From sequence record SRR20825006_934: a stretch of 32,217 nucleotides of DNA; one strand, 5' to 3'. This document shows, one piece after another, positions 8,495 to 32,217 of this stretch. How positions within the stretch are numbered: position 1 is the first letter of the stretch; every line of letters starts with the position of its first letter. The notes under the pieces were generated by a model that saw nothing but the letters and a program-made list of their open reading frames with translations, did no database searches and had not been told where the DNA came from. Both the position numbers and the translations under genes were made by a program.

Positions 8495-8629
8495 TGAAAA
8501 AGCAAGGCTGTTGAGCCCTGCTTTTCCTAATTAATTAACAGGCAACTTTTCTCGAGCCCGCTATATTTATAACGCAAAGTCCTCCCTGAGCGTGGGCCAC
8601 GTAAGGCGTGAACCGTTCAGCTCTGCGCA
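8495..8629 (-). ncRNA. Candidate small RNA (~135 nt), alpha-r9 (Smr9C)-like by synteny
   Basis: Lies between the DUF1467 membrane gene and proS, the context I recall for the alpha-r9 family; bounded by a sigma70-like promoter and a strand-specific terminator; contains AGGGAGGACUUUGCG; ends are approximate. Confidence 0.6.
8497..8525 (-). terminator. Intrinsic terminator of the minus-strand sRNA candidate (may also act on the + strand nuo-DUF1467 transcript)
   Basis: Minus-strand RNA AAAAGCAGGGCU-CAAC-AGCCUUGCUUUUU is fully paired with one G.U; the same position on the + strand is an A.C mismatch. Confidence 0.75.
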
Positions 8630-8635
8630 CCACTG

Positions 8636-8664
8636 AAGCTATGTAAAGCCCGGCGAGCTGTCAT
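8636..8664 (-). promoter_or_regulatory. Putative sigma70 promoter for the sRNA candidate
   Basis: Minus strand ATGACA (8664-8659), 17-nt spacer, TAGCTT (8641-8636). Confidence 0.5.
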
Positions 8665-8680
8665 CAAATTAGAGACAATC

Positions 8681-8698
8681 AACACAACATATTGTGTT
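8681..8698. promoter_or_regulatory. Palindrome matching the NrdR-box consensus
   Basis: AACACAA-CATA-TTGTGTT; the core ACACAACATATTGTGT fits acaCwAtATaTwGtg; only a single copy seen. Confidence 0.45.
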
Positions 8699-8711
8699 TG
8701 TTTGTGTGGAA

Positions 8712-8729
8712 TGTTGCAGCCGTGCAACA
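8712..8729. promoter_or_regulatory. Perfect inverted repeat, putative transcription-factor operator
   Basis: TGTTGCA-GCCG-TGCAACA, starting 31 bp after the start of the first palindrome. Confidence 0.4.
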
Positions 8730-8914
8730 ATGAGCGCGCAGTGCACCTTTAAATTGCGCATTTGGGTTCAAATATTGCGCGCTGTATCTGTGAAATTTAA
8801 GAAAGCCGTTGCTATTCCGGACGCCCCCCGGCAAAAGAAGCGAAGAGCCCGTGGCGTGAAAGACTCTATCGACACAGGCAAATTGATCAACCAACAAGCA
8901 TATATGAGTAAGCC

Positions 8915-10225
8915 ATGCGCCTAAGCCGCTATTTCCTGCCAACCTTGAAAGAAACCCCTGCTGAGGCACAAATTGCGTCTCACCGCTTGATGCTGCGGGC
9001 GGGCATGATCCGGCAGGGTGCGGCTGGCATATACAGCTGGCTGCCATTGGGTCTCAAAGTTCTTAAAAAGATCGAAAAGATTGTCCGGGAAGAGCAGGAC
9101 CGTGCGGGTGCGCAGGAAGTACTCATGCCCACAATCCAATCTGCTGATTTGTGGATTGAGAGTGGGCGATACGACGACTATGGCAAGGAAATGCTTCGCA
9201 TCGAAGACCGTCATGGCCGGCAAATGTTGTATGGCCCAACAAATGAAGAAATGATCACCGATATTTTCCGTCGTGAGATCAAGTCTTACCGAGACTTACC
9301 CAAAAACCTCTATCATATTCAGTGGAAGTTCAGAGATGAGATTCGTCCTCGTTTCGGCGTGATGCGGGGCCGTGAGTTTCTAATGAAAGACGCTTATAGC
9401 TTCGACCTGACGGAAGAAGACGGTGTTAAGTCATATAACTCCATGTTTGTGGCATACCTGCGCACCTTTGCGCGGCTTGGTCTGAAGGCAATACCGATGC
9501 GGGCTGATACTGGGCCAATTGGGGGTGATTTGAGCCATGAGTTCATCGTTCTTGCCGATACTGGCGAAAGCGAGGTTTTCTTCGACGCGGGCTTTGATGG
9601 CCTAGACCCAATGATTGATGCCGAAGCCGATGCTGATCTGCAGCCGATTGTTGACGAATGGACGAGCATGTATGCGGCGACGGATGAAATCCATGATGCG
9701 GATAACTGCCCGGTAGATGTCAGCAAGCTTGTGACAGGCCGCGGTATTGAAGTTGGGCATATCTTCTTTTTCGGGGAGAAATACTCCAAACCTTTGAATG
9801 CTGCAGTCCAAGGTCCTGATGGCGAAACAGCGGTTGTGCAGATGGGTTCCTATGGTGTTGGGGTGTCGCGTCTCGCGGGTGCAATAATCGAGGCTTGCCA
9901 TGACGAGAATGGCATTATTTGGCCAGAATCTGTGGCGCCGTTCAAGGTTGGTTTGATGAACCTGCGAACAAAAGATGACGAGTGTACTACGGCCTGCGAC
10001 AAAATGTATGCGGAACTCAGCACAGCAGGTGTTGACGTGCTTTATGATGACCGCGATCAAAGTGCAGGCGCGAAATTCGCCAACATGGACCTGATCGGTT
10101 TGCCCTGGCAGTTGGCGATAGGGCCTCGAGGCCTTAAAAATGGCATTGTTGAGCTTAAAAACAGGAAAACGGGCGAGCGGGTCGAACTCTCGCCCGAGGA
10201 CGCTGTAGCGATGCTCAGCGCTTAA
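8915..10225 (+). CDS. proS: Proline-tRNA ligase, short alphaproteobacterial type without INS editing domain
   Basis: [62 protein letters not shown]; 436 aa. Confidence 0.98.
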
Positions 10226-10246: not shown

Positions 10247-11494
10247 GTGATAGCACGGGGATTTGAGTGGTCTGTAGCCATGCGGTATATGCTGGCCAGA
10301 AAACGAGACCGGGTGATCTCTGTAACCGCTGTGCTTTCTGTAACAGCTATCGCGCTAGGCGTGACAGCGCTCATCGTTGTGATGGCTGTTATGAATGGCT
10401 TCCGCGCTGAGTTGATGGATAAAATCCTTGGTTATCATGGTCATATCCTGATTCAAGGGTATGGCGGCAAGCTTTCCGGCTATGAGCAGATTATTGATGA
10501 TCTGAAGGACACGAAGGGCGTTACCAAAATAATGCCCTTCAGTGAAAATCAGGTCATGGTCACTAATGAAGGTGAAGCTTGGGGTGCAATCGTACGAGGT
10601 TTGCCGAACGACTTCTTCAGCGTGGAAAAACTTGGCCTTGTGGGCGTGAAGGCTGGGAAGTTGGGCAATGTAGTGGAAGCAAACGGCCTTGTCCTGGGAT
10701 ACCAGTTGGCCAACAAGCTACGCGTGACGGCGGGTGACAGGGTGACGATTGTGAGCCCGAAGTCAGTGCCCACACCGTTTGGTTCCACGCTACGATATTT
10801 ATCCTATCCCGTTGCAGCAGTGGTAGAAATTGGCGTTTATCAGTTTGATGAAAGCTTTATCGGCATGCCGCTTGAGGAAGCTCAACGTTTCTTTCGCCTT
10901 GAAGGAGCGGTTGCGAATATTGAACTGATGTTGACCGAGCCCGAGGCGGTAGACACTGTTGGCCCAGTGATCGCTGAGATCGTTGGTGAGCGGGCGTATG
11001 TTCGATCCTGGCGGTCGCTAAACCAAAGTCTGGTTGGTGCGCTTCAGACCGAACGCGTGATGATGTTCCTTATAGTGGGGCTGATCATCCTCGTTGCGGT
11101 GTTCAATATTTCTTCCAGCCTGTTCATGCTGGTAAAAGACAAAGCCCCAGACATAGCAATTCTGCGCACCATCGGTGCTACGCAAGCGTCTATTAAGCGC
11201 ATTTTTGTGACCATCGGACTGTTTGTTGGGTCTGCTGGCATTATCTTCGGCAGCCTGCTGTCCTGGCTTATTATTGCCAATATTGAAGCAATCAAGGCCT
11301 TTATCGAACGCGCTTTTGGTCTGAATATGTGGGACCCGTCCGTGAGGTTTATCACCAACCTTCGGGCCGAGGTGAATTTAACTGAAGCAGGGCTTACTGT
11401 CGGACTCGCACTTCTACTGTCCTTTATCGCCACGATTATTCCAGCCCGCCGTGCCGCCAAAATCGATCCTGTGGAGGTACTGCGTTATGAGTAA
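10247..11494 (+). CDS. lolE: Lipoprotein-releasing ABC transporter permease LolE/LolC (single LolF-type subunit)
   Basis: GIALGV-like AIALGVTALIVVMAVMNGF, DIAILRTIGA, PARRAAKIDPVEVLRYE; AAGGAGG RBS, GTG start. Confidence 0.93.
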   Translation: MIARGFEWSVAMRYMLARKRDRVISVTAVLSVTAIALGVTALIVVMAVMNGFRAELMDKILGYHGHILIQGYGGKLSGYEQIIDDLKDTKGVTKIMPFSENQVMVTNEGEAWGAIVRGLPNDFFSVEKLGLVGVKAGKLGNVVEANGLVLGYQLANKLRVTAGDRVTIVSPKSVPTPFGSTLRYLSYPVAAVVEIGVYQFDESFIGMPLEEAQRFFRLEGAVANIELMLTEPEAVDTVGPVIAEIVGERAYVRSWRSLNQSLVGALQTERVMMFLIVGLIILVAVFNISSSLFMLVKDKAPDIAILRTIGATQASIKRIFVTIGLFVGSAGIIFGSLLSWLIIANIEAIKAFIERAFGLNMWDPSVRFITNLRAEVNLTEAGLTVGLALLLSFIATIIPARRAAKIDPVEVLRYE

Positions 11495-12167
11495 TCCAGT
11501 GCTAAAGCTTGCAGGTATCGAGAAATCATTCCGGCAGGGCCATAAGGTTGTCGAAGTCCTAAAGGGCATTGACCTTACCATCAAGGCTGGAGAATTGGTT
11601 GGGCTGGTTGGGGCTTCAGGCTCAGGCAAGTCTACATTGCTGCAGATATCTGGCTTGCTGGACCCAACAGATGCGGGAACAGTTTATATTGGCGGCAATG
11701 ATGCAACGAGCCTGAAGGATGACGCGCGCTCGGGCCTTCGGCAGAGCCAGCTTGGCTTTGTGTATCAGTTCCATCACTTGCTTCCTGATTTCACGGCTGT
11801 TGAGAACGTGGCTATGGCACTCAGAATTGGTGGCGTCGCGGAAAAAGCAGCAAATGAACGCGCGCAGGAAATATTGGTGCGCGTTGGGCTCGAGGAGCGC
11901 CTTGAGCACACGCCAAGTGAGCTTTCAGGTGGTGAGCAGCAGCGAGTAGCGATTGCTCGAGCGCTTGTCGGAAATCCGATGCTGTTGCTGGCTGACGAGC
12001 CTACGGGAAATCTGGATGAAAGCACCGCAGGGCGCGTATTTGATCTGTTCGTCGAGCTTGTCCGGGAGCGTGGCCTTTCGGCGCTCATCGCAACCCATGA
12101 TACCACCCTGGCCGCCAAAATGGACTGGCGCATGACCCTACGGGAAGGGACCCTCCACGATACTTGA
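11487..12167 (+). CDS. lolD: Lipoprotein-releasing ABC transporter ATP-binding protein
   Basis: Walker A GASGSGKS, GFVYQFHHLLPDF, LSGGEQQRVAIARAL, LADEPTGNLD; start set at ATG 11487, overlapping the lolE end. Confidence 0.95.
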   Translation: MSNPVLKLAGIEKSFRQGHKVVEVLKGIDLTIKAGELVGLVGASGSGKSTLLQISGLLDPTDAGTVYIGGNDATSLKDDARSGLRQSQLGFVYQFHHLLPDFTAVENVAMALRIGGVAEKAANERAQEILVRVGLEERLEHTPSELSGGEQQRVAIARALVGNPMLLLADEPTGNLDESTAGRVFDLFVELVRERGLSALIATHDTTLAAKMDWRMTLREGTLHDT

Positions 12168-12219
12168 GTATGACGCTCAGTCGGGGTAGTCTGAAGAGTA
12201 TTTCCTAGGGGAGGGACTT

Positions 12220-12645
12220 ATGGAAAATCTTTCAGATATCAATTGGATCGCAGTGTTGCTTGGCGGTGTCATCTACATGGCTATTGGCAGTGTTTGGTAT
12301 GGTCCGATAGCAGGTAAAGCCTGGATGGCAGAGATGGGCTTGACGGCGGAGGAGCTCAAACAAGCGTCCAACAATCCAATGAAAGCAATGTTGATGAGCT
12401 TTGTGGCCTCTCTGTTCATGAGCTTCGGTTTGGCGTTTGTGCTATCTATGCCCGGTTTTGCCGGCGGCGGCTGGATGGGCGGCTTAAAGGTTGGGCTCAT
12501 CTTGTCTGTGCTGATTATCGGCGGCAGCACATTTGCGAACTATGCCTTTGAAAGCAAATCTATCCGCCATTTCCTGATCCATATGGGAAATATCACGCTC
12601 AGCATGATGGCGATTGGCGCTATGATGGGCGCCTGGGGCACCTAA
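12220..12645 (+). CDS. DUF1761-family integral membrane protein (about 4 TM helices)
   Basis: INWIAVLL...IGSVWYGP...GKAWM N-terminal signature; strong GGGGAGGG RBS. Confidence 0.75.
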   Translation: MENLSDINWIAVLLGGVIYMAIGSVWYGPIAGKAWMAEMGLTAEELKQASNNPMKAMLMSFVASLFMSFGLAFVLSMPGFAGGGWMGGLKVGLILSVLIIGGSTFANYAFESKSIRHFLIHMGNITLSMMAIGAMMGAWGT

Positions 12646-12671
12646 AACCACCTGTTTGGAGTTAATGGCAC

Positions 12672-15600
12672 ATGAGCCACGCTGATTTCGTGCATCTTCG
12701 CGTGCACACTGCTTATTCGCTTTCTGAAGGAGCCATACACGTCAAGGACCTCGTAAAGCAGTGTGTTGGGCATAAGATGCCAGCCGTTGCGATGACGGAT
12801 ACTGACAACATGTTTGCGGCGCTCGAATTTTCGAGCTATGCGACAGAAGCTGGTGTGCAGGCGATCATTGGCGTGACGCTTCATGTGCGAAATCCCTATA
12901 AGGACCATCAGGCAAAAGGAAAGCGCGCGGCGAAACCTGACCAGTTGGTGCTTCTGGCGCAATCTGACGCTGGTTATCGCAACTTGATGAAGATTGTTTC
13001 CAAGGCTCACTTGGAAAGTGATGTTCAGGAAGGGGTGCAGTTTCCATTTTCAGCCTTTGAGGGCCTGACCGAAGGGGTAATTTGCCTGACAGCTGGTATT
13101 ACGGGCCCGGTGGGGGCTCTTCTTCTGGAAGGCAATAGGGACGATGCTGAAAAGTGTCTTCTTGATTTGAAAGCGCTGTTTGCTGATCGGCTTTATGTCG
13201 AGATTGCACGCCACGGCTTGAAAGAGGAAGAGGCCACAGAAGAAGACTTCTTGGATTTCGCCTACACCCACAGCCTGCCAATCGTTGCGACTAATCAGCC
13301 CTTCTTTGTAGGGCCGGATATGTATGAGCCCCACGATGCGTTGCTCTGCATGGCGGAAAGTACGTATGTGGCGGTGCAGGACCGACGGAAACTGAACCCT
13401 GAGTTCAGGTTCAAAAGCGCGGAAGAGATGATAAATCTCTTTAATGACATTCCTGAAGCTATTGAAAATACAATAAATATATCAATTAGGTGCGCCTATA
13501 AAGTCGACAAGATTGATCCTCTGTTACCGAACTTCACCAGCGGCATGGACGTCTCTGAGGCAGACATGCTTCGCGACGAGTCTATTAAAGGCCTACGCGA
13601 GAGGCTGGACTTCAAGGCTAGGGAGGAGGGCCTTGTCGCAGGTCAGGATGAAGAGTGGGAAAAGGAGTACTGGGATCGGCTTGATTATGAGTTAGGGATC
13701 ATTAACCAGATGGGCTTTCCCGGCTACTTCCTGATCGTTGCCGATTTTATCCAGTGGGCCAAGGATAACGATATCCCTGTGGGGCCGGGGCGGGGTTCTG
13801 GCGCGGGTTCTGTTGTGGCCTGGGTTCTGAAGATCACAGACCTCGATCCTTTGCGTTTCTCGCTGCTCTTTGAACGCTTCCTGAACCCAGAGCGTGTGTC
13901 CATGCCTGACTTTGACGTTGACTTTTGCCAGGACAAGCGGGAACAGGTGATCCGCTACGTGCAGGATAAATACGGTTACGACCGGGTGGCACAGATTATT
14001 ACCTTTGGAAAGCTGCAAGCCCGTGCGGTTGTCAAAGCCTGTGGGCGCGTGATGCAGCAACCACACGGCCAGACCGACCGCCTATCCAAAATGATCCCGA
14101 ACGACCCAGGCAATGCCATGACGCTCCGCGAAGCAATCGACAGCGAACCCAGGCTGCAGAGCGAGATCAATAGCGATGAACTGACCCGCAGAGTGATGGA
14201 GCGAGCGCTGAAGCTTGAGGGTTTCTACGCGCATTCCTCTACCCATGCTGCGGGCGTTGTAATTGGCGATAGACCACTCGACCAGTTGGTGCCGCTTTAC
14301 CGGGACCCAAAATCTGACATGCCGGTTACCCAGTTCAATATGAAATGGGTGGAGCTTGCGGGGCTGGTGAAGTTTGACTTTCTTGGCCTCAAAACGCTGA
14401 CGGTTCTCGACCGTGCTGTGGACTATATCAGGGAGCGCGGCATTGAAATCGACCTCCCAGCAGTGCCGCTGGACGATGGCCCATCATACAAACTGTTGGC
14501 AGCCGGTGATGCAGCGGGTGTGTTCCAGCTTGAGAGTACGGGCATGCGCTCGGTCCTGAAGGGCCTGCGTCCAGATAAATTTGAAGACATTATCGCTATC
14601 GTGGCGCTCTATCGCCCCGGCCCGATGGACAACATCCCGACATACGTGAACCGAAAACACGGCCGGGAGAAGGTGGAATATCCGCATCCAATTCTGGAAG
14701 AAATACTGTCTGAAACTTACGGCGTGATCATCTATCAGGAACAAGTGATGCAGATCGCGCAGGTTATGTCTGGCTACAGTTTGGGGGAAGCCGACATCCT
14801 GCGTCGCGCGATGGGTAAAAAAATTCAGGCGGAGATGGATAAACAGCGCGGCCGTTTTTGTGATGGCGCCGTTGAACGCGGCATCGACGCAGAGAAAGCC
14901 AGCTATATCTTTGATCTGGTTACTAAATTTGCGAGCTATGGATTTAACAAGTCTCATGCGGCCGCATATGCACTGGTTGCCTATCATACAGCCTTTCTGA
15001 AAGCGAATTATCCTGTGGAGTTCATGGCTGCGATCATGACACTTGATATGGGGAATACCGACAAACTCGCGGCGTTCAAACAAGAATTGCAGCGCGCAGA
15101 AATTCCGCTGCTGCTTCCCAACATCAATCGTTCTGACGTGGCTTTCGTTGTTGAGAAAGTTGATGAGGCTTATTGCGAAGAAGAGGACCCCAGGTTTAAC
15201 CAGGGTGTGCGATATGCACTTGGAGCCATCAAGGGTGTTGGCGAAAAGGCCATGGAAACCATCGTTGCCGAGCGGAAAGCAAACGGTGAATTCAAGGATA
15301 TTTTTGATTTCGCAGAAAGAGTTGATCCCAGGCTTCTGAACAAACGTCAGATGGAGCGTTTGGCCGCTGCCGGTGCCTTTGACTGCTTGCTTGAAAATCG
15401 TGCGCAGGCATATGCCGCCGCAGACATTGTGATGCGCCTGGCCCAAATGCAAGCTAAGGAGCGTGAGAGTGATCAGGTAAGCCTCTTTGGTGGCGAGATG
15501 GCAAAGGCTGTTGACCGTCCCAGTTTGCCGACAGTGCGCGCCTGGACAGACACCGAGCAGCTCGAGAGCGAGAAAAATGCTGTCGGGTTTTATATATCGG

Positions 15601-16181
15601 CCCATCCGCTAGATGCCTATGAAACTATACTTGAGCGTGAGCGGATCATTCCGGCACGTGAGGTATATCACGATCCCGGCTTGGTTGGCCAAACTGTGCG
15701 AATGGCGGGTGCCATTGCTGGCTATCGTGAGGGTAACACCAAACGTGGCAGTCGGTTTGGTAGGCTTACACTGTCGGACAGGTCAGATGCTTTTGAGATT
15801 ATGGCGTTTGAGGATGACCTTGACGGTATTCGTGCGTTGGTGGAGGAGGGGGCGCCAGTTGTTGTCTCTGTCCAGATCCGGAAACGGGATGACGATGACA
15901 CGGTTGGTCTCTCTTGTCGGGGTATTGAGAGCTTGGAAACGGTAGCCTCGCAGTCAAGCAAAGGCCTGTTTATCGAAATTGAGGAAAGCAAGGCGTTTGT
16001 CCCGATCAAATCAACGCTTGACCGTAAATCGGGAGGCAAAGGCAAGGTTACGATACGCGTTCCAGTGTCTGACAGTAGCCGCTTCGCTGAATTCCGCCTA
16101 AGCGGCCGTTATAAAATTACACCGGAGCTTAAGCAGGCTGTAGCCGCAGAGATTGGTGTTCTGTCGGTGGAGGAAGTGTGA
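12672..16181 (+). CDS. dnaE: DNA polymerase III alpha subunit
   Basis: PHP domain FVHLRVHTAYSL, GPGRGSGAGS, FERFLNPERVSMPDFDVDF, THAAG, GLVKFDFLGL, YGFNKSH; 1169 aa, no intein-sized insertion. Confidence 0.98.
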   Translation: MSHADFVHLRVHTAYSLSEGAIHVKDLVKQCVGHKMPAVAMTDTDNMFAALEFSSYATEAGVQAIIGVTLHVRNPYKDHQAKGKRAAKPDQLVLLAQSDAGYRNLMKIVSKAHLESDVQEGVQFPFSAFEGLTEGVICLTAGITGPVGALLLEGNRDDAEKCLLDLKALFADRLYVEIARHGLKEEEATEEDFLDFAYTHSLPIVATNQPFFVGPDMYEPHDALLCMAESTYVAVQDRRKLNPEFRFKSAEEMINLFNDIPEAIENTINISIRCAYKVDKIDPLLPNFTSGMDVSEADMLRDESIKGLRERLDFKAREEGLVAGQDEEWEKEYWDRLDYELGIINQMGFPGYFLIVADFIQWAKDNDIPVGPGRGSGAGSVVAWVLKITDLDPLRFSLLFERFLNPERVSMPDFDVDFCQDKREQVIRYVQDKYGYDRVAQIITFGKLQARAVVKACGRVMQQPHGQTDRLSKMIPNDPGNAMTLREAIDSEPRLQSEINSDELTRRVMERALKLEGFYAHSSTHAAGVVIGDRPLDQLVPLYRDPKSDMPVTQFNMKWVELAGLVKFDFLGLKTLTVLDRAVDYIRERGIEIDLPAVPLDDGPSYKLLAAGDAAGVFQLESTGMRSVLKGLRPDKFEDIIAIVALYRPGPMDNIPTYVNRKHGREKVEYPHPILEEILSETYGVIIYQEQVMQIAQVMSGYSLGEADILRRAMGKKIQAEMDKQRGRFCDGAVERGIDAEKASYIFDLVTKFASYGFNKSHAAAYALVAYHTAFLKANYPVEFMAAIMTLDMGNTDKLAAFKQELQRAEIPLLLPNINRSDVAFVVEKVDEAYCEEEDPRFNQGVRYALGAIKGVGEKAMETIVAERKANGEFKDIFDFAERVDPRLLNKRQMERLAAAGAFDCLLENRAQAYAAADIVMRLAQMQAKERESDQVSLFGGEMAKAVDRPSLPTVRAWTDTEQLESEKNAVGFYISAHPLDAYETILERERIIPAREVYHDPGLVGQTVRMAGAIAGYREGNTKRGSRFGRLTLSDRSDAFEIMAFEDDLDGIRALVEEGAPVVVSVQIRKRDDDDTVGLSCRGIESLETVASQSSKGLFIEIEESKAFVPIKSTLDRKSGGKGKVTIRVPVSDSSRFAEFRLSGRYKITPELKQAVAAEIGVLSVEEV

Positions 16182-16954
16182 TGCCTGATAAACCCGGTAG
16201 GTATGTCAAAGCGCTTCCAGCTTCTTCCATAATGCTTGTCAGAGACGGTATGGGTGGCGTCGAGGTTCTGATGATCGAGCGCGCAAAAACCATGAAATTT
16301 GCACCGGGAGCGTTTGTTTTTCCGGGCGGGAAGGTTGACTCGGCTGACCAGCAGAATTGGCGCTGGCAAGGTATCACTACAGGACGGGGTGTCTTTCGTG
16401 ACTTCAGCTATAGGGTAGCGGCGCTCAGGGAGCTATACGAGGAAGCTGGCGTGCTACAGATCGATCGGCCGCGTCGGCAAACCTTATACGCAGGTCTGCC
16501 GTTTGCTGATCTGGTTCGCTACTCTGGCGGAAAACTTGATATCGCGAATATGGTGCCATTTGCTCACTGGGTAACGCCGGAGCCCTTGCCTCGGCGGTTT
16601 GATACCCATTTTTATCTGGCGGAGCACAATGGTCAGGTTGCGCAGCATGATGGTAACGAGGCGGTATCGCTGAGATGGGTGAGCCCAAGGAAGGTGCTGA
16701 GCGACTGGGAAGAAAACAAAGTACCGCTGATGTTCCCGACACGGCTCAACCTAATGAAGTTGGCGCGAGCTAGCACCGCGGCGGGGGCGATACAACAAGC
16801 TCGGCGTTCTCCCGTAGTGCGTACCTTGCCGGTCGTGAATATGAGCGCAGCGGGTGTTAAACTCGAGATCGAAAAGGCTGCCGGGTTCGGCGTAACTTCC
16901 GCTACAGAGAAAGAATTAGCGGTTGAAGCAGGCGCCCGCCAAAATAAGCCTTGA
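16178..16954 (+). CDS. Nudix hydrolase, NUDT19-like (possible acyl-CoA diphosphatase)
   Basis: FVFPGGKVD...AALRELYEEAG (split Nudix box), WVTP...RRFDTHFY, LMFPT; GTGA overlap with the dnaE stop. Confidence 0.85.
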   Translation: MMPDKPGRYVKALPASSIMLVRDGMGGVEVLMIERAKTMKFAPGAFVFPGGKVDSADQQNWRWQGITTGRGVFRDFSYRVAALRELYEEAGVLQIDRPRRQTLYAGLPFADLVRYSGGKLDIANMVPFAHWVTPEPLPRRFDTHFYLAEHNGQVAQHDGNEAVSLRWVSPRKVLSDWEENKVPLMFPTRLNLMKLARASTAAGAIQQARRSPVVRTLPVVNMSAAGVKLEIEKAAGFGVTSATEKELAVEAGARQNKP

Positions 16955-24463: not shown

Positions 24464-27025
24464 TTGCGTTTAAATAAACTGAGTTTGACGTGGCGCTTTA
24501 TACTAGCGCTCACCATCGGGGGGATTTCGTTTACTGGGTCGGTTTCGGCTCAGCAACAAGCGGCCCAACAGGTACCAATCATCCGCCAGATCAGCGTGGT
24601 CGGAAACGAACGCGTTGAGCCTGAGACCATCGCGTCCTATCTATCAGTCTCACCGGGTGAACCGTTTGATCCAGTAAAACTAGATGAAAGCCTGAAAGCA
24701 CTTTTTGCGACCGGCCTGTTCTCTGATGTTGAATTATCAGAGGTACAAGGCGCACTGCTGGTGCGTGTGGTTGAGAATCCCATCATTAACCGGATTGTTT
24801 TTGAGGGGAACAAGCGTCTTGACCGCGAAGAGTTACTTGAAGAAGTAAGGCTTCGCCCTCGCATGGTATTTACGCGCGCTAAAGTACGTTCTGATGTCCA
24901 GCGCATGCTTGAGCTCTATCGTCGCTCTGGCCGCTTTGCTGCGATTATTGAGCCAAAAGTTGTGCAGTTAGAACAAAACCGTGTTGATCTTTTGTTTGAA
25001 GTGCAGGAGGGCCCAAAAACTAAAGTCAGCAGCATTAAATTCATTGGCAACAAGAAATTTAGTGATGGTGACCTTAGGGATGTACTCGCTACAAAGCAGG
25101 CTCGTTGGTGGAAGCTGTTTACCTCAAACGACACATTTGATCCTGATCGGCTTGCATATGACCAGCAGATATTGCGCCAGCATTACCTGAACGAGGGCTA
25201 TGCAGATTTTCGCACGGTTTCGGCGGTATCTGAACTTACACCTGACCGTAAGGACTTCTTCATTACTTTTACGGTTGATGAAGGTGAGATTTATAACTTT
25301 GGCAAGATTGACGTTGAGAGTGAAATTAGGGACGTAAACGTTAACTTGTTCCGGGCTTTCCTTCTGATGCGTGAAGGCGATACCTACAACGCTGAAGCAA
25401 TTGAAAAAACAATTGAAGCGCTATCAAACGCAGCTGGTCTTCTGGGCTATGCGTTTGTTGATGTTCGGCCTCAAATCAACAGGAACCGTGAAGAGCGCAC
25501 AATTGATATCAACTTCCGAGTGCTTGATGCGCCAAGGGTATATGTTGAGCGCGTTAACATTACGGGTAACGTTCGTACGCTGGATAGGGTTATCCGCAGG
25601 GAGTTCCGCCTGCAAGAAGGCGATGCCTTCAACTCCGCATTGGTAACGCGTTCCGAGAACCGCCTGAACCGTTTGAACTTCTTCCGTGAAGTTGAGGTCG
25701 AGCAGGTGCAAGGTAGTCAGCCCGACCGTATGGTGCTGGAGGTGGGCGTGGAAGAGCAGGCTACGGGTGAATTGAACCTAGGTGCCGGTTTCTCCAGCCT
25801 TGAGAATTTTATCTTTGACTTCTCTATCCGTGAGCGGAACCTGATGGGTAAAGGTCAGGACCTTCGACTTGGACTTCGCCTTTCAGGTACACGTCAAGAA
25901 ATTGATCTAGGCTTTACTGAACCATATTTTATGGGCAGGAACGTGGCTGCGGGTGTTGACCTCTTCGCTCGGAAGATTGATAGCAGCAGCTATGGCTCAT
26001 ACTTTGATACCAAATCCATCGGTTTCTCCCTGCGGGCAGGGATGGCAATCAACGAGTTTTGGACACTGTCCACCCGCTATACGCTTCGTCAGGATGATGT
26101 GTCCTTGCTCGATAGCTATCTTAATGCGGTGTACAACACATACTTCGACGCGCGCACGACAAATGGTATTACCGATCAAGACGAATTCGATCGGCGAGTT
26201 AGCCGCTTCGATAACAATAACGACGGTGTCGTTAATCTTGATGATTTTGACACCGATGGAAATGGGACTATTAGTCAGGAAGAAAAGCAAGTTGCGCTGA
26301 GCCGCGGTGTACAGGACTCTATTGGCAAGCGGTATCAGTCTATCGTTGGCTACACCGTGGGTTTTGATACGCGGAACAGCATTATTCGTCCTACACGAGG
26401 CCACAACTTCTTCTTCAGTCAGGATTTCGCTGGCCTTGGCGGGGATGTTCGCTATCTTCGATCAACCATAACCACGGACAACTACTGGACTCCCTGGGAG
26501 GGCTGGACATTCCGGTTGGGCGGTGAAGCAGGCATTATCCATGGCCTTGGGCAAGACGTACGGCTGTCCGACAAGTTCTTTATCGGTGGCCCTCGTATTC
26601 GCGGGTTTGATACCGCCGGTATGGGCCCGAGAGACTTTGCTAACAACCAGTCGATTGGTGGTACAGCATACTATATCGGCCGAGGTGAATTGTTCTTCCC
26701 TCTCGGTGATGCTGCCCTTGAGAGTGGTATCAATGCCTCAGCCTTTGTGGACGTGGGCTCGCTGTTCAGAGCACAAGAAGATGCTTTGGCACCGTGTACC
26801 TTCAGCCGGGCAGAGTATGACGCAGCGGTTGTGGATAATGACTTTTCGGGCCTCGACCTGAACTGTATGTCAGGAAATAGCGCCAAACCGCGTCTGTCTG
26901 TTGGTATTGGCTTCTCATGGCAGTCGCCATTTGGCCCGTTCCGGATTGACCTATCCAAACAGCTGCGTAAACAGCTTGGTGACCGGACACAAACGCTGCA
27001 GTTCAATGTCGGTACGACATTCTAA
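24464..27025 (+). CDS. bamA: Outer membrane protein assembly factor BamA with enlarged barrel loops
   Basis: Signal peptide, POTRA repeats (GN motifs, LFATGLFSDV, VIRRE), TEPYF, IRGF lid-lock motif, SPFGP, C-terminal FNVGTTF; TTG start is uncertain. Confidence 0.97.
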   Translation: MRLNKLSLTWRFILALTIGGISFTGSVSAQQQAAQQVPIIRQISVVGNERVEPETIASYLSVSPGEPFDPVKLDESLKALFATGLFSDVELSEVQGALLVRVVENPIINRIVFEGNKRLDREELLEEVRLRPRMVFTRAKVRSDVQRMLELYRRSGRFAAIIEPKVVQLEQNRVDLLFEVQEGPKTKVSSIKFIGNKKFSDGDLRDVLATKQARWWKLFTSNDTFDPDRLAYDQQILRQHYLNEGYADFRTVSAVSELTPDRKDFFITFTVDEGEIYNFGKIDVESEIRDVNVNLFRAFLLMREGDTYNAEAIEKTIEALSNAAGLLGYAFVDVRPQINRNREERTIDINFRVLDAPRVYVERVNITGNVRTLDRVIRREFRLQEGDAFNSALVTRSENRLNRLNFFREVEVEQVQGSQPDRMVLEVGVEEQATGELNLGAGFSSLENFIFDFSIRERNLMGKGQDLRLGLRLSGTRQEIDLGFTEPYFMGRNVAAGVDLFARKIDSSSYGSYFDTKSIGFSLRAGMAINEFWTLSTRYTLRQDDVSLLDSYLNAVYNTYFDARTTNGITDQDEFDRRVSRFDNNNDGVVNLDDFDTDGNGTISQEEKQVALSRGVQDSIGKRYQSIVGYTVGFDTRNSIIRPTRGHNFFFSQDFAGLGGDVRYLRSTITTDNYWTPWEGWTFRLGGEAGIIHGLGQDVRLSDKFFIGGPRIRGFDTAGMGPRDFANNQSIGGTAYYIGRGELFFPLGDAALESGINASAFVDVGSLFRAQEDALAPCTFSRAEYDAAVVDNDFSGLDLNCMSGNSAKPRLSVGIGFSWQSPFGPFRIDLSKQLRKQLGDRTQTLQFNVGTTF

Positions 27026-27047: not shown

Positions 27048-27635
27048 ATGGGTACGTTTTTAAAAACACTTAAACTTGGCATGGTAGCTGTTGCTGCGAT
27101 GGTTGGCATTAGTGCGGTATCATCAGCACAGATATTGACCGTAGATGATGAACGGGTTGAGCGTGAAGCTGCGGCTTATAAGGACTTCAACCTGCAGACT
27201 AATGAACTGCGCCAAAGCATATTGCAGCGTCGCCAGATGGTAACGCGTGGCGGAGCAATCGAGCAGCAGCTTGCAGACCTTGAGAAACGCAAGGCGATCA
27301 TTGGCAACGATAAATACGAAGAAGAAAAGCGGAAGCTGGAGCAAACTTATGTACGCTTTCAACAAGAACTTGCTCAGCTTGAGTATGTTTTTGACCAGCT
27401 TCGTCAGGAAGCTATGGTGCAAGTTGAGCGTGCGCGCCAACCGGTTATCCGTAGCCTGCTCGCGGAACGCAATGCTCAGGTCATTATGATGAAGCGCCTT
27501 CTCCTCGGTTCAGCTGCGGGCATTGATGTAACCACACAGTTTATTGAAAAGCTGGATGCTGAACTGCCAAACGTGACGCTGAATTTGCCAAAGGCGGGTG
27601 ATGCTCCTGCTGCTGAACAACCAGAACAGCAATAA
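27048..27635 (+). CDS. skp: OmpH/Skp-family periplasmic chaperone
   Basis: Signal peptide (SSA-Q), coiled-coil body, C-terminal IDVTxxFIEKLD motif, position directly after bamA; start set at ATG 27048. Confidence 0.85.
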   Translation: MGTFLKTLKLGMVAVAAMVGISAVSSAQILTVDDERVEREAAAYKDFNLQTNELRQSILQRRQMVTRGGAIEQQLADLEKRKAIIGNDKYEEEKRKLEQTYVRFQQELAQLEYVFDQLRQEAMVQVERARQPVIRSLLAERNAQVIMMKRLLLGSAAGIDVTTQFIEKLDAELPNVTLNLPKAGDAPAAEQPEQQ

Positions 27636-27657
27636 CATTTAGATTGGCGCATCGAAG

Positions 27658-28095
27658 ATGACATTCGATATCGAGAAAATCATGGAACTGATACCACACC
27701 GGTATCCGTTCCTGCTTGTGGATAAGGTTGTTGATATTGTGCCGGGCGAAAGCGGAACCGGGATCAAGAATGTCACGATGAATGAGCCATTTTTTCCAGG
27801 TCATTTCCCACAGAAACCTGTGATGCCGGGCGTTTTGATCCTTGAGGCAATGGCCCAAACAGCCGGGGCGCTGGCGATCGATTTTCTTGGAGACGATGCC
27901 AAGGGCAAAGTTGTTTACTTCATGGCGATTGACGGAGCAAAGTTCCGTAAACCGGTTGTGCCGGGCGACCGCCTTGAAATGAAGCTCGTGAAGGTCCGGG
28001 GGCGTGGCGCGGTTTGGAAGTTTGATGCGAAAGCTTATGTCGACGATGAGTTGACAACGGAAGCGACATTGACAGCGATGCTTGGTGGAAACTAG
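27658..28095 (+). CDS. fabZ: 3-hydroxyacyl-ACP dehydratase
   Basis: IPHRYPFLLVD, KNVTMNEPFFPGHFP, MPGVLILEAMAQ, FRKPVVPGD. Confidence 0.98.
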   Translation: MTFDIEKIMELIPHRYPFLLVDKVVDIVPGESGTGIKNVTMNEPFFPGHFPQKPVMPGVLILEAMAQTAGALAIDFLGDDAKGKVVYFMAIDGAKFRKPVVPGDRLEMKLVKVRGRGAVWKFDAKAYVDDELTTEATLTAMLGGN

Positions 28096-28120
28096 CTCCA
28101 AGGTATTTCTAAATTCATGG

Positions 28121-28145
28121 AAGGCGGCCTATTGGCCGCCTTTTT
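28121..28145 (+). terminator. Rho-independent terminator directly after fabZ
   Basis: AAGGCGGCC-TATT-GGCCGCCTT followed by a T-run, about 25 nt after the fabZ stop. Confidence 0.9.
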
Positions 28146-28274
28146 CATTTGGGTCATAAAGCTCCAGTATACTGGATGATTAGCAATGACATTTTGATCT
28201 AGGCGTATATTGGGCTATCTTATGCCAGAGAGGCGGCACAGAACGAAGGCCGTTCCGTGTGCGAGGTCGGCCAT

Positions 28275-29321
28275 ATGTACAAGTTCCCCGTTAATGATCT
28301 AACCCGCATATATGCGGGTTTTAACGATAACTTCCAAAGCAAAACTACGCCTTATGACTTCTTTAAGGTAGGCGAATCTGCGTCCGCGAACGGCGTACGT
28401 CTGGAGTTGAATGACCGGGTTGCCTCGGGCTATTGGGAACTTTTTCGCCCAGATAGCGGTATACTTATTTGTGTAGCTGATGGTTTATATCACCGTGCAT
28501 ATCAGGAAGTCATCACACCAAAACAAGATGTGATTACGGTACGGTTTGTGCTCTCAGGTAAGATGTCTGTTCGTCTGGCGGGAAAACGTAGCATTGACAT
28601 CCCACAGTGCAGCGCTTCTGTTCTACATATTAAGCAGTCCGAAGACTTCGAACTCACCATTAGCGGCAACAGTCATCTATGTTCCGTCAGCTTCCATCTT
28701 GAACCGGGAATTCTACGAGACAGGTTTCACTTGGAAGGAGATCGTCTGCCACCTCTCTTGCGTGATTTGGTGTTTGGGGCAGGTGGGACCCGGCCTCCGT
28801 ATAACTTTCCCATGTCGGCTCATACCATCAATGTTGTCAACGATGTGTTGAAGATGCGGTTTGAGGGAGGGCGTCGGAGCGCATATGTACAGGCCAAGAT
28901 GGTGGAACTTCTGTGTCGCCTGTTTCAAGAGGTGGAGGATGAATACCTGGGGAACAGGCAAATACTGACAGGCCCAAAGCAGAGTGTGCGCAAAAAGGTA
29001 CACCGTGCGCATCAGATCCTTATCGCAAACTATATGAAGCCGCCGCCTATAGCCTCTCTGGCGAGGGAAGTGGGGCTCAACCGCAGCACGCTGAGCGCGG
29101 AATTCAAGAAGGTGTTTGGAATCAGTATATTTTCCTTCTCCCAAGACTATCGGCTTGATAAAGCGCGTGAGCTTCTGGGGAACCGCGACCTTTCCATTCA
29201 GGAGGTAGCAGAGATAGTTGGCTATGATTATGCTGCGAATTTTACGGCTGCTTTCAAGCGAAAGTACGGATTGCTTCCAAAGGATATACGCGTCGCTCCG
29301 CAGGTAGCTATCCTTCAGTAG
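28275..29321 (+). CDS. AraC-family transcriptional regulator (PchR/YbtA-like architecture)
   Basis: C-terminal double HTH: LAREVGLNRSTLSAEFKKVFG...RLDKARELL...SIQEVAEIVGYDYAANFTAAFKRKYGLLP; ATG 28275 has GAGGT RBS (alternative GTG 28257). Confidence 0.92.
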   Translation: MYKFPVNDLTRIYAGFNDNFQSKTTPYDFFKVGESASANGVRLELNDRVASGYWELFRPDSGILICVADGLYHRAYQEVITPKQDVITVRFVLSGKMSVRLAGKRSIDIPQCSASVLHIKQSEDFELTISGNSHLCSVSFHLEPGILRDRFHLEGDRLPPLLRDLVFGAGGTRPPYNFPMSAHTINVVNDVLKMRFEGGRRSAYVQAKMVELLCRLFQEVEDEYLGNRQILTGPKQSVRKKVHRAHQILIANYMKPPPIASLAREVGLNRSTLSAEFKKVFGISIFSFSQDYRLDKARELLGNRDLSIQEVAEIVGYDYAANFTAAFKRKYGLLPKDIRVAPQVAILQ

Positions 29322-29357
29322 GCTGAATTCGCCGATAAATTACTGTCATGCGGAATT

Positions 29358-29418
29358 GACGATCTCAGTATTATTTTGGACGACCTCATAATTCCTTGTC
29401 AGAAAATTTCAATATTAT
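29358..29418 (+). promoter_or_regulatory. Putative AraC-activated promoter: two 21-bp-spaced direct repeats plus a -10 box
   Basis: GACGATCTCAGTATT (29358) and GACGACCTCATAATT (29379); TATTAT at 29413-29418 with no consensus -35 at the 17-nt position. Confidence 0.55.
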
Positions 29419-29464
29419 CTCTCAAGCAATAACAGGATTGCTCTGACAATGAGGGTTAACAGCC

Positions 29465-31738
29465 ATGAATAAAAAATTAGATGCCTACGCGAAACAGCGT
29501 AGCATTTTCAGGGAAGGATTGGCGGCATCTACCGCTATTTCACAGTGTCTTGCTCTTGGTCTTTTAGGAGGAATCGCATTTAGCGGTGCGGCTTCTGCGC
29601 AACAAGCTGAAAGTAGTGACATGACGTTCGAAGAGATCGTGGTTACGTCTCGAAAACGTTCAGAATCGATGATGGATATTCCCATGAGTATCAACGTGGT
29701 CTCAGAAGGCCTGATTGAGAAGATGGGTGCCTCCAACTATACAGATTTGCTTGCATCAGTTCCCAGCCTGACAGCGTATCAGAACGGGCCGGGGCGTACT
29801 CGCCTGGTTATCCGTGGTGTTGCGAACACTTCAAGCGGGGCGAATGATAACGATACACAGAACCAGGAAACAGTGGGCATCTATCTTGATGAAATTCCTA
29901 TTTCGACCGGGGCGCTTAATCCGGAACTAGGACTGTTTGACCTGGAACGTGTAGAGGTTTTGCGCGGACCGCAAGGAACGCTATACGGCGCAGGTTCCAT
30001 GACAGGAACGATCAGGCTTGTGTCCAAGAAACCGAACTTGCGGGAATTTGAAGGTAAGGTGGACGCGTCGCTTTCGACCATCAATAAGGGCAGCGAAAAC
30101 TACGACGTTAAAGCGCTCGTGAATATTCCTGTGGTTGAGGATAGGTTCGCGCTTCGTACATCCGCCTACTACGAGAAGAACGGTGGATACATCGATAACG
30201 TTCTGACCGGCGAAAAAGACATTAACCATGGACGGGCTGTTGGTGCTCGCGTTTCCGCTAGACTTCAGTTAAGCGAGGCCTTCACGGCGGATTTTTCCTT
30301 CTTCCATCATGATTATTCCGACAATGGCCGCCCTGAAGATCTTGACCATACGCCACTGTTTTCGCGCGATTATCCATCAAACGATGGATATGACGACGAG
30401 ATGCAAATCTATAACCTTACGCTCAATTATGATTTGGGCTGGGGGGAGATAGTATCTTCAACGTCGTATTTCGACCGCAAGGTGGTAAACCGTCGTTCGC
30501 TTGATCTCCTTTTTGAAACATTGCCTCCACAGATCGTGCCGCATGAGTTGATCGACACAACGGATACTGATGTGTTTGTTCAGGAAATTCGCTTGGCTTC
30601 GCAGACGGAATCGCCACTTCAGTGGACCGTTGGGGCCTACTTGGACAAGAAGGATGTACTCTATCTGAATACATTTCCGGTTCCAGGTGCGGACGCTATT
30701 CTCGGCGATTCGAGCAACTTTGGCGCACCGAAAGACCATCTCTACTATGGTTATGATGACCTTGAGGTTAAAACATACGCATTGTTTGGTGAAGCTTATT
30801 ATACTTGGGATAAGTTTACATTTACCGCGGGCTTGCGCTACTTCAACTGGAAGCAGGACATTGAGTTCTATCAGTCTGGCCTTTTCAATGGGGGCGCCAA
30901 CAGCGATGTGCGACCACAAAGTACGGTCGATGGCGTGAACCCCAAGTTCAATATCTCCTATCAGATAAATGACGATAATCTGGTCTATGTACAGATGGCC
31001 AAAGGTTTCCGTTATGGGGGTATTAATGGTGCCATTCCTGAGGCGGTGTGTGCCGATGAACTAGCACAGGTTGAACGCGAAGGAGGAGACACGCGGTTCT
31101 TTAACCCTGATAAAACCTGGAACTATGAAATTGGTAGCAAAAATTCGCTGGCTGATGGACGGGTAACGTTGAACGCCAGCTACTTCCATATCAAATGGCA
31201 GGACATGCAAACGTCACGCGGCTTTGAATGTGGCTTTGGCTTCAAGGAGAATGTGGGCGAAGCGACGAGCCAAGGTATCGAGCTTGAGCTGAATGCCCGG
31301 GTTACAGAGAACTTGAGCCTCTACCTGGGTGGTACCTACATCAACTCGGAACTGGCACAAGATGTACCAAATCTGGGCGCGGAAGAGGGCGACAAAGCGC
31401 CGTTTGTCCCTGAATTTGCGTTCAATACGTCAGCAGACTATGTACGTCCCCTCACTGACACAATGGATGGCTTCATCTGGGCCAACGTTCAGTATGTGGG
31501 TGAAAGAAACAGCCATTTCTCGGATGATGACGCCAATTTCCGGGCTATGGATGGCTATTTCGTGTCAAACCTTCGTGTTGGTACCCGTTGGGACAATCTG
31601 GAACTCTCTGTGTTTGCTAACAATTTGTTTGATGGGCGAGGTGTTATTCGCGCAATGCGTAGACCACCATTCGACCCCGATGCGACTATCAAGGTTGAGC
31701 CACGTACGATTGGTGTTTCACTACGCGCCAATTTCTAA
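29465..31738 (+). CDS. TonB-dependent outer membrane receptor, substrate unknown
   Basis: Signal peptide (ASA-Q), TonB box EEIVVT, plug motif DLERVEVLRGPQGTLYGAG, NNLFD, PRTIG, C-terminal Phe. Confidence 0.95.
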   Translation: MNKKLDAYAKQRSIFREGLAASTAISQCLALGLLGGIAFSGAASAQQAESSDMTFEEIVVTSRKRSESMMDIPMSINVVSEGLIEKMGASNYTDLLASVPSLTAYQNGPGRTRLVIRGVANTSSGANDNDTQNQETVGIYLDEIPISTGALNPELGLFDLERVEVLRGPQGTLYGAGSMTGTIRLVSKKPNLREFEGKVDASLSTINKGSENYDVKALVNIPVVEDRFALRTSAYYEKNGGYIDNVLTGEKDINHGRAVGARVSARLQLSEAFTADFSFFHHDYSDNGRPEDLDHTPLFSRDYPSNDGYDDEMQIYNLTLNYDLGWGEIVSSTSYFDRKVVNRRSLDLLFETLPPQIVPHELIDTTDTDVFVQEIRLASQTESPLQWTVGAYLDKKDVLYLNTFPVPGADAILGDSSNFGAPKDHLYYGYDDLEVKTYALFGEAYYTWDKFTFTAGLRYFNWKQDIEFYQSGLFNGGANSDVRPQSTVDGVNPKFNISYQINDDNLVYVQMAKGFRYGGINGAIPEAVCADELAQVEREGGDTRFFNPDKTWNYEIGSKNSLADGRVTLNASYFHIKWQDMQTSRGFECGFGFKENVGEATSQGIELELNARVTENLSLYLGGTYINSELAQDVPNLGAEEGDKAPFVPEFAFNTSADYVRPLTDTMDGFIWANVQYVGERNSHFSDDDANFRAMDGYFVSNLRVGTRWDNLELSVFANNLFDGRGVIRAMRRPPFDPDATIKVEPRTIGVSLRANF

Positions 31739-31785
31739 CCATCCGGTAGGGTGCTTCTATGACGTCCTACCTATCAGAAACAAAG

Positions 31786-31813
31786 AAAGGGCTGCGAAAT
31801 TCGCAGCCCTTTT
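31786..31813. terminator. Bidirectional intrinsic terminator between the TBDR gene and gltA
   Basis: AAAGGGCTGCGA-AAT-TCGCAGCCCTTTT; A-rich flank on the left, T-rich on the right; between convergent genes. Confidence 0.88.
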
Positions 31814-31831
31814 GCTTTACTTTTGGTCCAA

Positions 31832-32217
31832 TTATCCGCGTTCTGCAACCGGCACATAATCTCGTTTTGGTGCGCCAGTATATAGCTGACGTGGGCGTCC
31901 GATTTTCTGCGTTGGATCCTCAACCATTTCTTTCCACTGCGCGATCCAACCTGCCGTGCGCGCGAGCGCAAACAGTACTGTGAACATTGCTGTCGGGAAG
32001 CCCATCGCTTTCAGGATAATGCCTGAATAGAAATCCACGTTCGGGTAGAGCTTTTTCTCAACAAAATATGGATCTTCGAGAGCAATCTTCTCAAGCTCCA
32101 TGGCAACATCGAAGAGAGGATCGTCAACACCCAGTTCTTGCAGAACCCTGTGTGCCGTGTCGCGCATCACGGTCGCCCGTGGATCAAAGTTTTTGTAAAC
32201 GCGGTGACCAAAGCCCA
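31832..32217 (-). CDS. gltA: Citrate synthase, C-terminal part (5' end beyond the window)
   Basis: Frame reads [14 protein letters not shown] from the window edge, then [34 protein letters not shown]. Confidence 0.97.

Follow-up and report, generated by a model that had tools for sequence, protein, structure and literature searches.

The window analysed here, a stretch of 32,217 nucleotides from sequence record SRR20825006_934, carries the locus bamA-skp-fabZ-gltA, from which the lipid A genes lpxD, lpxA, lpxI and lpxB are missing. The source organism is a marine Kordiimonas: its FabZ and DnaE are 96% and 89% identical to those of K. gwangyangensis, its nearest named relative, and the serine palmitoyltransferase (Spt) encoded elsewhere in the genome shares 98% identity with its counterpart in a Kordiimonas metagenome-assembled genome (MAG). 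In the window the gene order is cdsA-dxr-rseP-bamA, and bamA itself (24464-27025, plus strand; TIGR03303 731.9 bits, cut-off 297), with five POTRA domains and an Omp85 domain, is a marker of a diderm envelope. The next gene on the same strand encodes a Skp/OmpH-like periplasmic chaperone of 195 residues (27048-27635), for which ATG 27048 is a plausible start yielding a signal-peptide-like N-terminus; its Pfam OmpH score of 22.1 bits is under the gathering score of 32.4, and its slot between bamA and fabZ is the one found in the comparators Thalassospira and a Sneathiella MAG. From the skp stop codon to the fabZ ATG there are 22 nucleotides (exactly 27636-27657, as an earlier note on this DNA had read), and this spacer corresponds to the lpxD slot of lipopolysaccharide (LPS)-making relatives. 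The 3-hydroxyacyl-acyl carrier protein dehydratase gene fabZ is retained (27658-28095, plus strand; NF000582 193.3 bits, cut-off 113).

Directly after fabZ, in the slot where lpxA-lpxI-lpxB come next in relatives, stands an intrinsic-terminator-like hairpin on the plus strand, GC-rich and followed by a T-run (about 28119-28150; folding -24 kcal/mol, z = -3.82 against shuffles). It was found by folding, a consensus terminator scan not having listed it, and it is kept in K. gwangyangensis and K. lipolytica. Between this hairpin and the convergent citrate synthase gene gltA (3' part, 31832-32217, minus strand; NF004126 238.9 bits, model positions 305-430), profile matches agree with the earlier reading of only two plus-strand genes, one for an AraC-family regulator (28257-29321; HTH_18 74.2 bits) and one for a TonB-dependent receptor with a Plug domain and a TonB_dep_Rec barrel (29465-31738; TIGR01783 181.6 bits, under the cut-off of 223.5). 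The gap between the receptor gene and gltA holds a bidirectional terminator-like hairpin with a 13-pair stem on both strands (31785-31813), listed as strong by the consensus scan and located at the same site as the gltA-side hairpin of other Kordiimonas.

Searching the window by tblastn with LpxD, LpxA, LpxI and LpxB of the Sneathiella MAG and Thalassospira (E <= 10) revealed no lpx remnant at the locus, only scattered matches within other genes (best E = 0.035); FabZ, the positive control, matched at 2e-51. The comparison locus that the earlier note had described was recovered in Thalassospira (L010) and the Sneathiella MAG (L057), where the order is skp-lpxD-fabZ-lpxA-lpxI-lpxB and gltA is convergent. 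Only about 170 nucleotides separate fabZ from gltA in K. gwangyangensis, K. lipolytica and a Kordiimonas MAG, and the AraC and receptor genes are not in the spacer of these three genomes. Both spacer hairpins of K. gwangyangensis and K. lipolytica are kept in the window with the AraC-receptor pair between them; because these conserved hairpins flank it, the pair (28257-31738) is a later insertion specific to the present genome and unrelated to the loss of lpx genes.

The genome (G000) is a single contig (C1) of 4,179,304 bases, rated 100% complete, in which the window occupies G000:C1:4031428-4063644. Across this complete genome, profile searches returned no match to LpxC, LpxB, LpxK or the N-terminal domain of WaaA (PF04413), and the best scores for LpxA (33.6 bits, cut-off 231), LpxD (44.4 bits, cut-off 242.5) and LpxH (51.3 bits, cut-off 190) were far under their thresholds, although the same models matched in the control genomes of E. 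coli, Caulobacter, Synechococcus and Bacteroides. Whole-genome tblastn with LpxD, LpxA, LpxI and LpxB of two relatives gave one weak hexapeptide-repeat match and no LpxI. These searches of a complete contig, which cover the genome-wide check that the earlier note had proposed for LpxA, LpxC, LpxD, LpxB, LpxK and WaaA, bear out its suggestion of a pathway-level loss of lipid A, and relocation of the lpx genes elsewhere in the genome is excluded. The weak LpxA- and LpxD-like matches were also considered as diverged enzymes and rejected: they belong to a NeuD-like acetyltransferase pair, GlmU, a Vat-like acetyltransferase and a gamma carbonic anhydrase. The Vat-like protein (L004:1135-1791; G000:C1:741843-742499) has hexapeptide repeats and is similar to streptogramin A acetyltransferases of the Vat family, with a score of 277 bits against a cut-off of 300.

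The machinery of an outer membrane is retained. BamA, the Skp-like protein, LolCE/LolD and the TonB-dependent receptor are encoded in the window, and LptD-SurA, LptB and LptA elsewhere; LptD is present with surA-pdxA-ksgA, LptB (369.7 bits) is encoded beside rpoN, and LptA is recognized by PF03968. By gene content, then, the organism is predicted to be a natural lipid-A-free diderm of the Sphingomonas type.

Loss of 3-deoxy-D-manno-octulosonic acid (Kdo) as part of the same syndrome was considered and rejected, as KdsA, KdsC and KdsB are all present. Their genes (kdsA, 376 bits, then kdsC and kdsB) are followed by one for a 695-residue KpsC-like Capsule_synth protein (G000:C1:3033538-3037730; L240:7538-11730), and the cluster is immediately preceded by a flagellin gene and followed by TPR and pyruvyl-transferase genes. 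Because the cluster adjoins a KpsC-like gene while WaaA is absent, Kdo probably serves a capsule-type linker or another glycoconjugate. Since kdsA-kdsC-kdsB are present, the Kdo assay that had been proposed earlier as a check should come out positive and be uninformative on LPS. There is a practical warning in this: Kdo assays and 'LPS export' annotations would falsely imply LPS in such marine bacteria. Upstream of the flagellin and Kdo genes we also observed two RTX-repeat proteins, one of them with a serralysin-type M10 protease domain (L240:1793-5579; G000:C1:3027793-3031579).

What the genome does contain is a sphingolipid locus, at about 3.741-3.754 Mb of G000:C1 (L098, in whose coordinates the genes of this locus are given below). 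One of five alpha-oxoamine synthase paralogues in the genome is Spt (C1:3749572-3750774, minus strand; L098 9572-10774), with 610.2 bits to NF047599, above the cut-off of 500. On the same strand follow, at higher coordinates, genes for a dedicated acyl carrier protein (ACP; 10781-11026), an epimerase-family, CerR-like reductase (11096-12049) and a fatty acyl-AMP ligase (12062-13810; 807 bits). On the plus strand, a 313-residue open reading frame (ORF) in the position of CpgC (8568-9509; no Pfam match at E <= 1) adjoins the gene for a DAGK_cat lipid kinase of 354 residues in the position of CpgB (7497-8561; 54.8 bits), and a DUF2141 gene (6861-7424) occupies the place of CpgA. Back on the minus strand come lptF (5504-6694), lptG (4350-5504), a gene for a 514-residue membrane protein (2809-4353) that has 10 or more hydrophobic segments and matches MatE weakly, and a gene for a 378-residue GNAT-like protein in the position of the bacterial ceramide synthase bCerS (1257-2393). 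The last, whose GNAT match is weak (24.2 bits), is kept near spt in 53 of 80 related loci.

The kinase gene and the 313-residue ORF lie next to spt in 41 of the 80 related loci by tblastn, including those listed for Kordiimonadaceae and Iodidimonas and some MAG loci. By the same method, the kinase, the 313-residue ORF, DUF2141 and the 10-segment protein were not found next to spt in nine listed Sphingomonas, Hephaestia and Stakelama loci. An Atlas lead for the 313-residue ORF, 'phosphatidate cytidylyltransferase family' (with Tam41 in 10% of one cluster), agrees with the cytidine diphosphate-diacylglycerol (CDP-DAG)-synthase-like domain that CC_1161 (CpgC) of Caulobacter is reported to bear (PMC11324152). 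Ceramide would, on this gene content, be phosphorylated and further decorated to an anionic sphingolipid. Because the four genes stand next to spt here and not in Sphingomonas-type loci, we consider a phospho-sphingolipid head group more likely than a glycosphingolipid.

The same locus holds the only LptF/LptG genes of the organism: the genome matches PF03739 twice only, both times in the sphingolipid locus and 3-5 kb from spt. Such linkage is common: in 67 of the 80 related loci, no more than 9 kb separates LptF/G from spt. We counted PF03739 matches over 27 genomes and placed 71 LptF/G domains in a tree (LG+F+G4, fast search). Genomes with both LpxC and Spt have four matches, that is two pairs, in eight of nine cases (G186 has two), and the other LpxC-positive genomes have two in five of five. 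Two is also the count for 10 of the 13 LpxC-less genomes; the others are K. gwangyangensis with three matches, Eilatimonas with four and G165 with none.

The tree separates these copies. Two canonical clades (SH-like approximate likelihood ratio test (SH-aLRT) support 99.5 and 100) contain all 10 copies of the LPS-only genomes together with 18 from two-pair genomes. Two other clades (98.5 and 91.2) contain most of the spt-linked copies of two-pair genomes and 27 of 27 copies from 12 LpxC-less genomes, none of whose copies falls in the canonical clades; two long-branch copies of G160 stand just outside the sphingolipid-type clades. As their copies all sit in the spt-linked clades, the lipid-A-less lineages have lost the canonical LptFG and kept the sphingolipid-type (LptF2/G2) pair only, G165 having neither. 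Eilatimonas milleporae (G254 C8:71457-73783) and K. gwangyangensis (G250 C5:17432-18487) have extra copies, and these too belong to the sphingolipid type. In the tree, the second pair of Eilatimonas clusters with the spt-linked one of G239, an LpxC-positive genome unrelated to it (SH-aLRT 100 and 93.5), which suggests transfer.

To place the organism we built a DnaE tree (61 rows, 1162 columns; LG+C20 with posterior mean site frequencies (PMSF), quick search). The window falls in a clade of 20 rows (SH-aLRT 97) that also takes in Kordiimonadaceae, Iodidimonas, Sphingomonas/Hephaestia and a further eight families of its GTDB order. The sister of this clade consists of Sneathiella-like, LpxC-positive rows, and the split reappears in a fast tree under LG+F+G4. 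A tree of DnaE and RpoB (29 rows, 2490 columns; LG+F+G4, fast search) joins a group of Kordiimonas, Eilatimonas and Iodidimonas with Sphingomonas at SH-aLRT 100. Kordiimonas, Iodidimonas and Sphingomonas thus form one marker-gene clade, a result that is suggestive rather than final as the trees are of one and two genes only. In NCBI taxonomy Kordiimonas is of the order Kordiimonadales, outside Sphingomonadales, whereas GTDB includes Kordiimonadaceae, Emcibacteraceae and Rhodothalassiaceae (with Iodidimonas) within Sphingomonadales, as tabulated in PMC8879329 (Table 1), whose authors oppose the lumping and argue that the orders stay separate. Two statements of the earlier note have to be qualified accordingly. 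It had held that a source outside the sphingomonads could be a diderm with an alternative outer-leaflet lipid: the organism is outside Sphingomonadales by NCBI, but it is inside by GTDB, it clades with Sphingomonas, and the predicted lipid is a sphingolipid. It had also held that placement inside Sphingomonadales would leave the finding true and not novel: the loss of the lipid A genes is borne out, and order membership differs between NCBI (no) and GTDB (yes).

In G121 (C2:1781473-1785529) rpoB is in two overlapping frames with a break at model position 769, from a frameshift or an assembly error. On both sides of dnaE in the window lie ORFs of 141 residues (12220-12645) and 258 residues (16178-16954) with no NCBIfam match at E <= 1e-20. 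The genome also encodes a CqsA-type alpha-hydroxyketone autoinducer synthase (G000:C1:291103-292347; L096:1321-2565; NF005526 451.9 bits, cut-off 428), which suggests CAI-1-like quorum sensing in the present Kordiimonas.

We then followed the absence of lipid A genes through the window's GTDB order, sampled by 101 genomes of 10 families and 46 genera, 87 of them of high quality and 13 of them further genomes of the genus. LpxC was found in none of the 101, and Spt in 97, including all 87 of high quality. LpxC was likewise absent from all 11 named genomes reached through Spt loci (K. gwangyangensis, K. lacus, K. sediminis, Pseudokordiimonas caeni, Eilatimonas milleporae, Yunchengibacter salinarum, Iodidimonas muriae, I. 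nitroreducens, Sphingomonas azotifigens, Sphingomonas sp. Sphisp66 and Hephaestia caeni), whereas all nine comparators (Thalassospira, Caenispirillum, the Sneathiella MAG, Nitratireductor, Cognatishimia, Terrihabitans, SO-S41, Acetobacter and Thalassobius) have it. These counts indicate that the loss at the locus is old and common to a clade to which the classical sphingomonads belong.

Beyond this order, we examined a class-wide sample of 151 alphaproteobacterial genomes, one per GTDB family and each at least 90% complete; one of them, G132, which is LpxC-positive and Spt-negative, is flagged as unpublished. LpxC is present in 130 and Spt in 22: 12 genomes lack LpxC and have Spt, 10 have both, nine have neither and 120 have LpxC only. 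Related genomes are not independent, so we attach no statistic to this two-by-two table. In nine families both LpxC and Spt are missing, and genome size is 0.5-2.0 Mb in the eight of these that are listed; in G107 (1.6 Mb), LpxC was seen only as fragments with internal TGA stops. Ten of the 12 LpxC-less, Spt-positive genomes are outside the window's order, and LpxB is above cut-off in none of these 10 (one has a 93-bit match under the cut-off), while both LpxC-positive controls have LpxB.

The hypothesis that all the LpxC-less rows belong together in one clade was rejected by the approximately unbiased (AU) test, both on DnaE (delta lnL 156.8, p-AU 0.0002; LG+F+G4, with the long-branch row G158 left out) and on DnaE with RpoB (delta lnL 176.5, p-AU 3e-7). 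Four families (G128, G211, G173 and G165) are separate from the Sphingomonas-Kordiimonas group. The DnaE tree by itself requires five changes; we did not rely on a count of four to five losses from DnaE only, as G180 joined the Sphingomonas-Kordiimonas clade once RpoB was added. Because of this shift we claim only that at least two independent losses of lipid A probably occurred in Spt-bearing alphaproteobacterial lineages, and we do so with moderate confidence. A broader proposition is that lipid A loss is repeatable in free-living Alphaproteobacteria, having happened at least twice, each time in sphingolipid makers that mostly discarded the canonical LptFG and kept, of the two types, only LptF2/G2, together with LptB; the present genome retains LptA and LptD as well. 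It is founded on the 12 of 151 families, the loss of LpxB in 10 of 10, the rejection of a single clade and the 27 of 27 LptF/G copies of sphingolipid type, and we regard it as an even bet. Weighing on the other side is G165 (5.4 Mb, one contig), which lacks LpxC and LpxB, has Spt and yet shows no LptF/LptG match at E <= 1e-10; there, outer-leaflet lipids may be exported by another route.

The gene absences and presences, the synteny and the clade membership described so far were observed directly. In the explanation that we find best, with a probability of roughly 0.82 for the whole, the Kordiimonas lineage lost the entire Raetz pathway, sphingolipids fill the outer leaflet and are exported through the sole LptFG pair, and the bamA-skp-fabZ-gltA arrangement is a scar of that old loss. 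We infer the lipid chemistry, its location at the surface and the transport route as follows. The acyl-AMP ligase, the CerR-like reductase, the dedicated ACP and Spt would make the long-chain base, which the GNAT-type protein in the bCerS position would convert to ceramide. The DAGK-type kinase and the Tam41/CDP-DAG-synthase-like protein (in the CpgB and CpgC positions) would then, probably, build an anionic phospho-ceramide head group. Export would proceed through the sole LptF/LptG pair, powered by LptB, with handover to the retained LptA and LptD. This route is the LptF2/G2 model of Caulobacter applied where that pair is the only option. In Caulobacter, LptF2/G2 is reported to bind LptB and to be required when anionic sphingolipids are made, lptF2/G2 being deletable only when spt or cpgB is absent (preprint 10.64898/2026.04.12.717747).

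Several points weigh against this explanation. Spt scores 613.8 bits with NF047603, the alphaproteobacterial model, 56 under the cut-off of 670. LptA (TIGR03002 68.9 bits, cut-off 71.7) and LptF (229.5 bits, cut-off 230) are each slightly under threshold, and LptC is a positional guess, a 266-residue ORF with one membrane segment. The bCerS, CpgB and CpgC assignments are candidates, made by domain class, gene position and Atlas leads only. There is no CpgA-type (PgsA-domain) gene in the locus, where DUF2141 has that place, so the head group is uncertain and the end product need not be the sphingolipid CPG2. Given kdsA, kdsC and kdsB beside the KpsC-like gene, another Kdo-bearing surface glycolipid may share the outer leaflet. 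Finally, our literature search found no fatty-acid or lipid chemistry for Kordiimonas. The nearest chemical data are those for three Iodidimonas strains, whose listed hydroxy acids are all 2-hydroxy with no 3-hydroxy acid in a table that leaves out acids below 1% (PMC10556733, Table 5). Such fatty acids fit, if indirectly, a sphingolipid-bearing, lipid-A-free envelope.

The rival that survives best accepts that lipid A is absent and makes sphingolipids a minor component, the leaflet consisting mainly of ornithine or other aminolipids, glycerophospholipids or a KpsC-type Kdo glycolipid. The kdsA-kdsC-kdsB-KpsC-like cluster without WaaA speaks for it, as do the OlsB homologues reported in Kordiimonadales (PMC12971839), the four unidentified aminolipids seen by thin-layer chromatography in Iodidimonas strain Q-1 (PMC10556733) and the small share of the Caulobacter lipidome that extractable ceramide phosphoglycerate (CPG) lipids make up (PMC9393093). 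Nevertheless, Spt is present in every one of the 87 high-quality genomes of an order without LpxC and in 12 of the 21 LpxC-less families, and of the nine families lacking Spt the eight listed have genomes of at most 2.0 Mb. Moreover, the one LptFG pair that was retained is of the sphingolipid type and lies within the spt locus, and sphingolipid synthesis is apparently essential in the LPS-less Sphingomonas koreensis (PMC11324152). We therefore regard a leaflet of this kind as unlikely.

Much less probable is that the lpx genes survive at another site, in a form too diverged to be recognized or on a replicon missed by the assembly. The window by itself cannot rule this out, and weak hexapeptide-repeat matches to the LpxA and LpxD models do occur at four to six places in the genome. 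Those matches, however, resolved to other hexapeptide-repeat proteins under models that recognize their targets in the control genomes; the genome is complete as one 4.18 Mb contig; seven enzyme families are gone together; and 13 of 13 further genomes of the genus are also without LpxC. That the missing genes are an artefact of assembly or of the window, with junctions that are not biological, has nothing found in its favour and is barely credible, given that the skp-fabZ junction without lpxD recurs in independent assemblies of K. gwangyangensis, K. lipolytica, the Kordiimonas MAG and Eilatimonas and that K. gwangyangensis and K. lipolytica share their spacer hairpins with the window.

Lipid A, regarded as near-universal and essential in Gram-negative bacteria, is an antibiotic target (through LpxC and Lpt) and the main signal to innate immunity, and its natural exceptions reveal what could replace it. 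If lipid A loss is indeed repeatable in the manner of the broader proposition, an (anionic) sphingolipid locus together with LptF2/G2 would be a sufficient natural replacement for LPS, and cultivable Kordiimonas, for which a complete genome exists, would offer a wild-type model of a state that Caulobacter attains only as a fur suppressor mutant. On the explanation that we find best, the LPS-free sphingolipid envelope would extend past the classical sphingomonads to Kordiimonadaceae, Iodidimonas and several further alphaproteobacterial families, and the route of bacterial sphingolipids to the surface, a question raised by the 2026 Caulobacter preprint, would become testable in a wild-type organism.

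Parts of this picture are already known. Sphingomonas has been described as LPS-free, the CPG pathway and LptF2/G2 are in the literature, and Spt in Kordiimonas pumila and the 'SERIK' orders has been published (PMC10411912). We found nothing in the literature searched to say that lipid A genes are missing from Kordiimonas, Iodidimonas or other Alphaproteobacteria outside the sphingomonads, or that LPS-less lineages retain a sphingolipid-type LptFG only; the supplements and figures of three key papers may bear on both points.

More distant diderms share the double membrane without lipid A and belong to unrelated phyla. Sorangium cellulosum So ce56 is reportedly a diderm without LPS and, to judge from the title of a 2011 paper by Keck that PMC11324152 cites, has sphingolipids. 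Spirochaetes have lipoproteins and glycolipids rather than sphingolipids. Borrelia and Treponema are given as diderms without LPS in PMC9393093.

Among the closest known systems is the sphingolipid locus of Caulobacter crescentus (CC_1152-1168; CCNA_01212-01223), which makes ceramide phosphoglycerates by CpgABC and exports them by LptF2/G2, lipid A being dispensable in fur mutants only (PMC9393093; PMC11324152; preprint 10.64898/2026.04.12.717747). Compared by published gene numbers rather than sequences, the two share the order GNAT protein (bCerS position)-LptG-LptF-kinase (CpgB position)-ORF without a domain (CpgC position)-spt-acp-cerR-ligase; the numbering, compiled from the same three sources, runs from bcerS (CCNA_01212), lptG2 and lptF2 (CCNA_01213 and 01214) through cpgA-cpgB-cpgC (CCNA_01217-01219) to spt, acp, cerR and the ACP synthetase (CCNA_01220-01223). 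The Kordiimonas locus is unlike it in having no PgsA-domain CpgA gene. The organisms differ too, in that Caulobacter makes LPS and has a canonical LptFG in addition to LptF2/G2 (according to the preprint), whereas Kordiimonas is without Lpx enzymes and has the sphingolipid-type pair only.

Another of the closest known systems is Sphingomonas. No LpxC was found in the two Sphingomonas genomes and one Hephaestia genome tested, and these resemble Kordiimonas in a further set of features: Spt with ACP and CerR, LptF/G close by, a single sphingolipid-type LptFG pair and membership of the same marker-gene clade. The natural LPS-free outer membrane of Sphingomonas, with glycosphingolipids, is said to have been described by Kawahara (1991) and Kawasaki (1994), both cited in PMC9393093. 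The two groups differ in that Kordiimonas is in another NCBI order and in that its spt locus adds the ceramide-kinase-like gene, the CpgC-position gene, DUF2141 and the 10-segment membrane protein. Sphingomonas is also reported to be without LpxC, LpxB and WaaA while keeping LptA, LptE and LptD (preprint 10.64898/2026.04.12.717747). Because the predicted replacement is a sphingolipid, as in sphingomonads, the present finding extends the known Sphingomonas-type envelope and is not a new kind of envelope.

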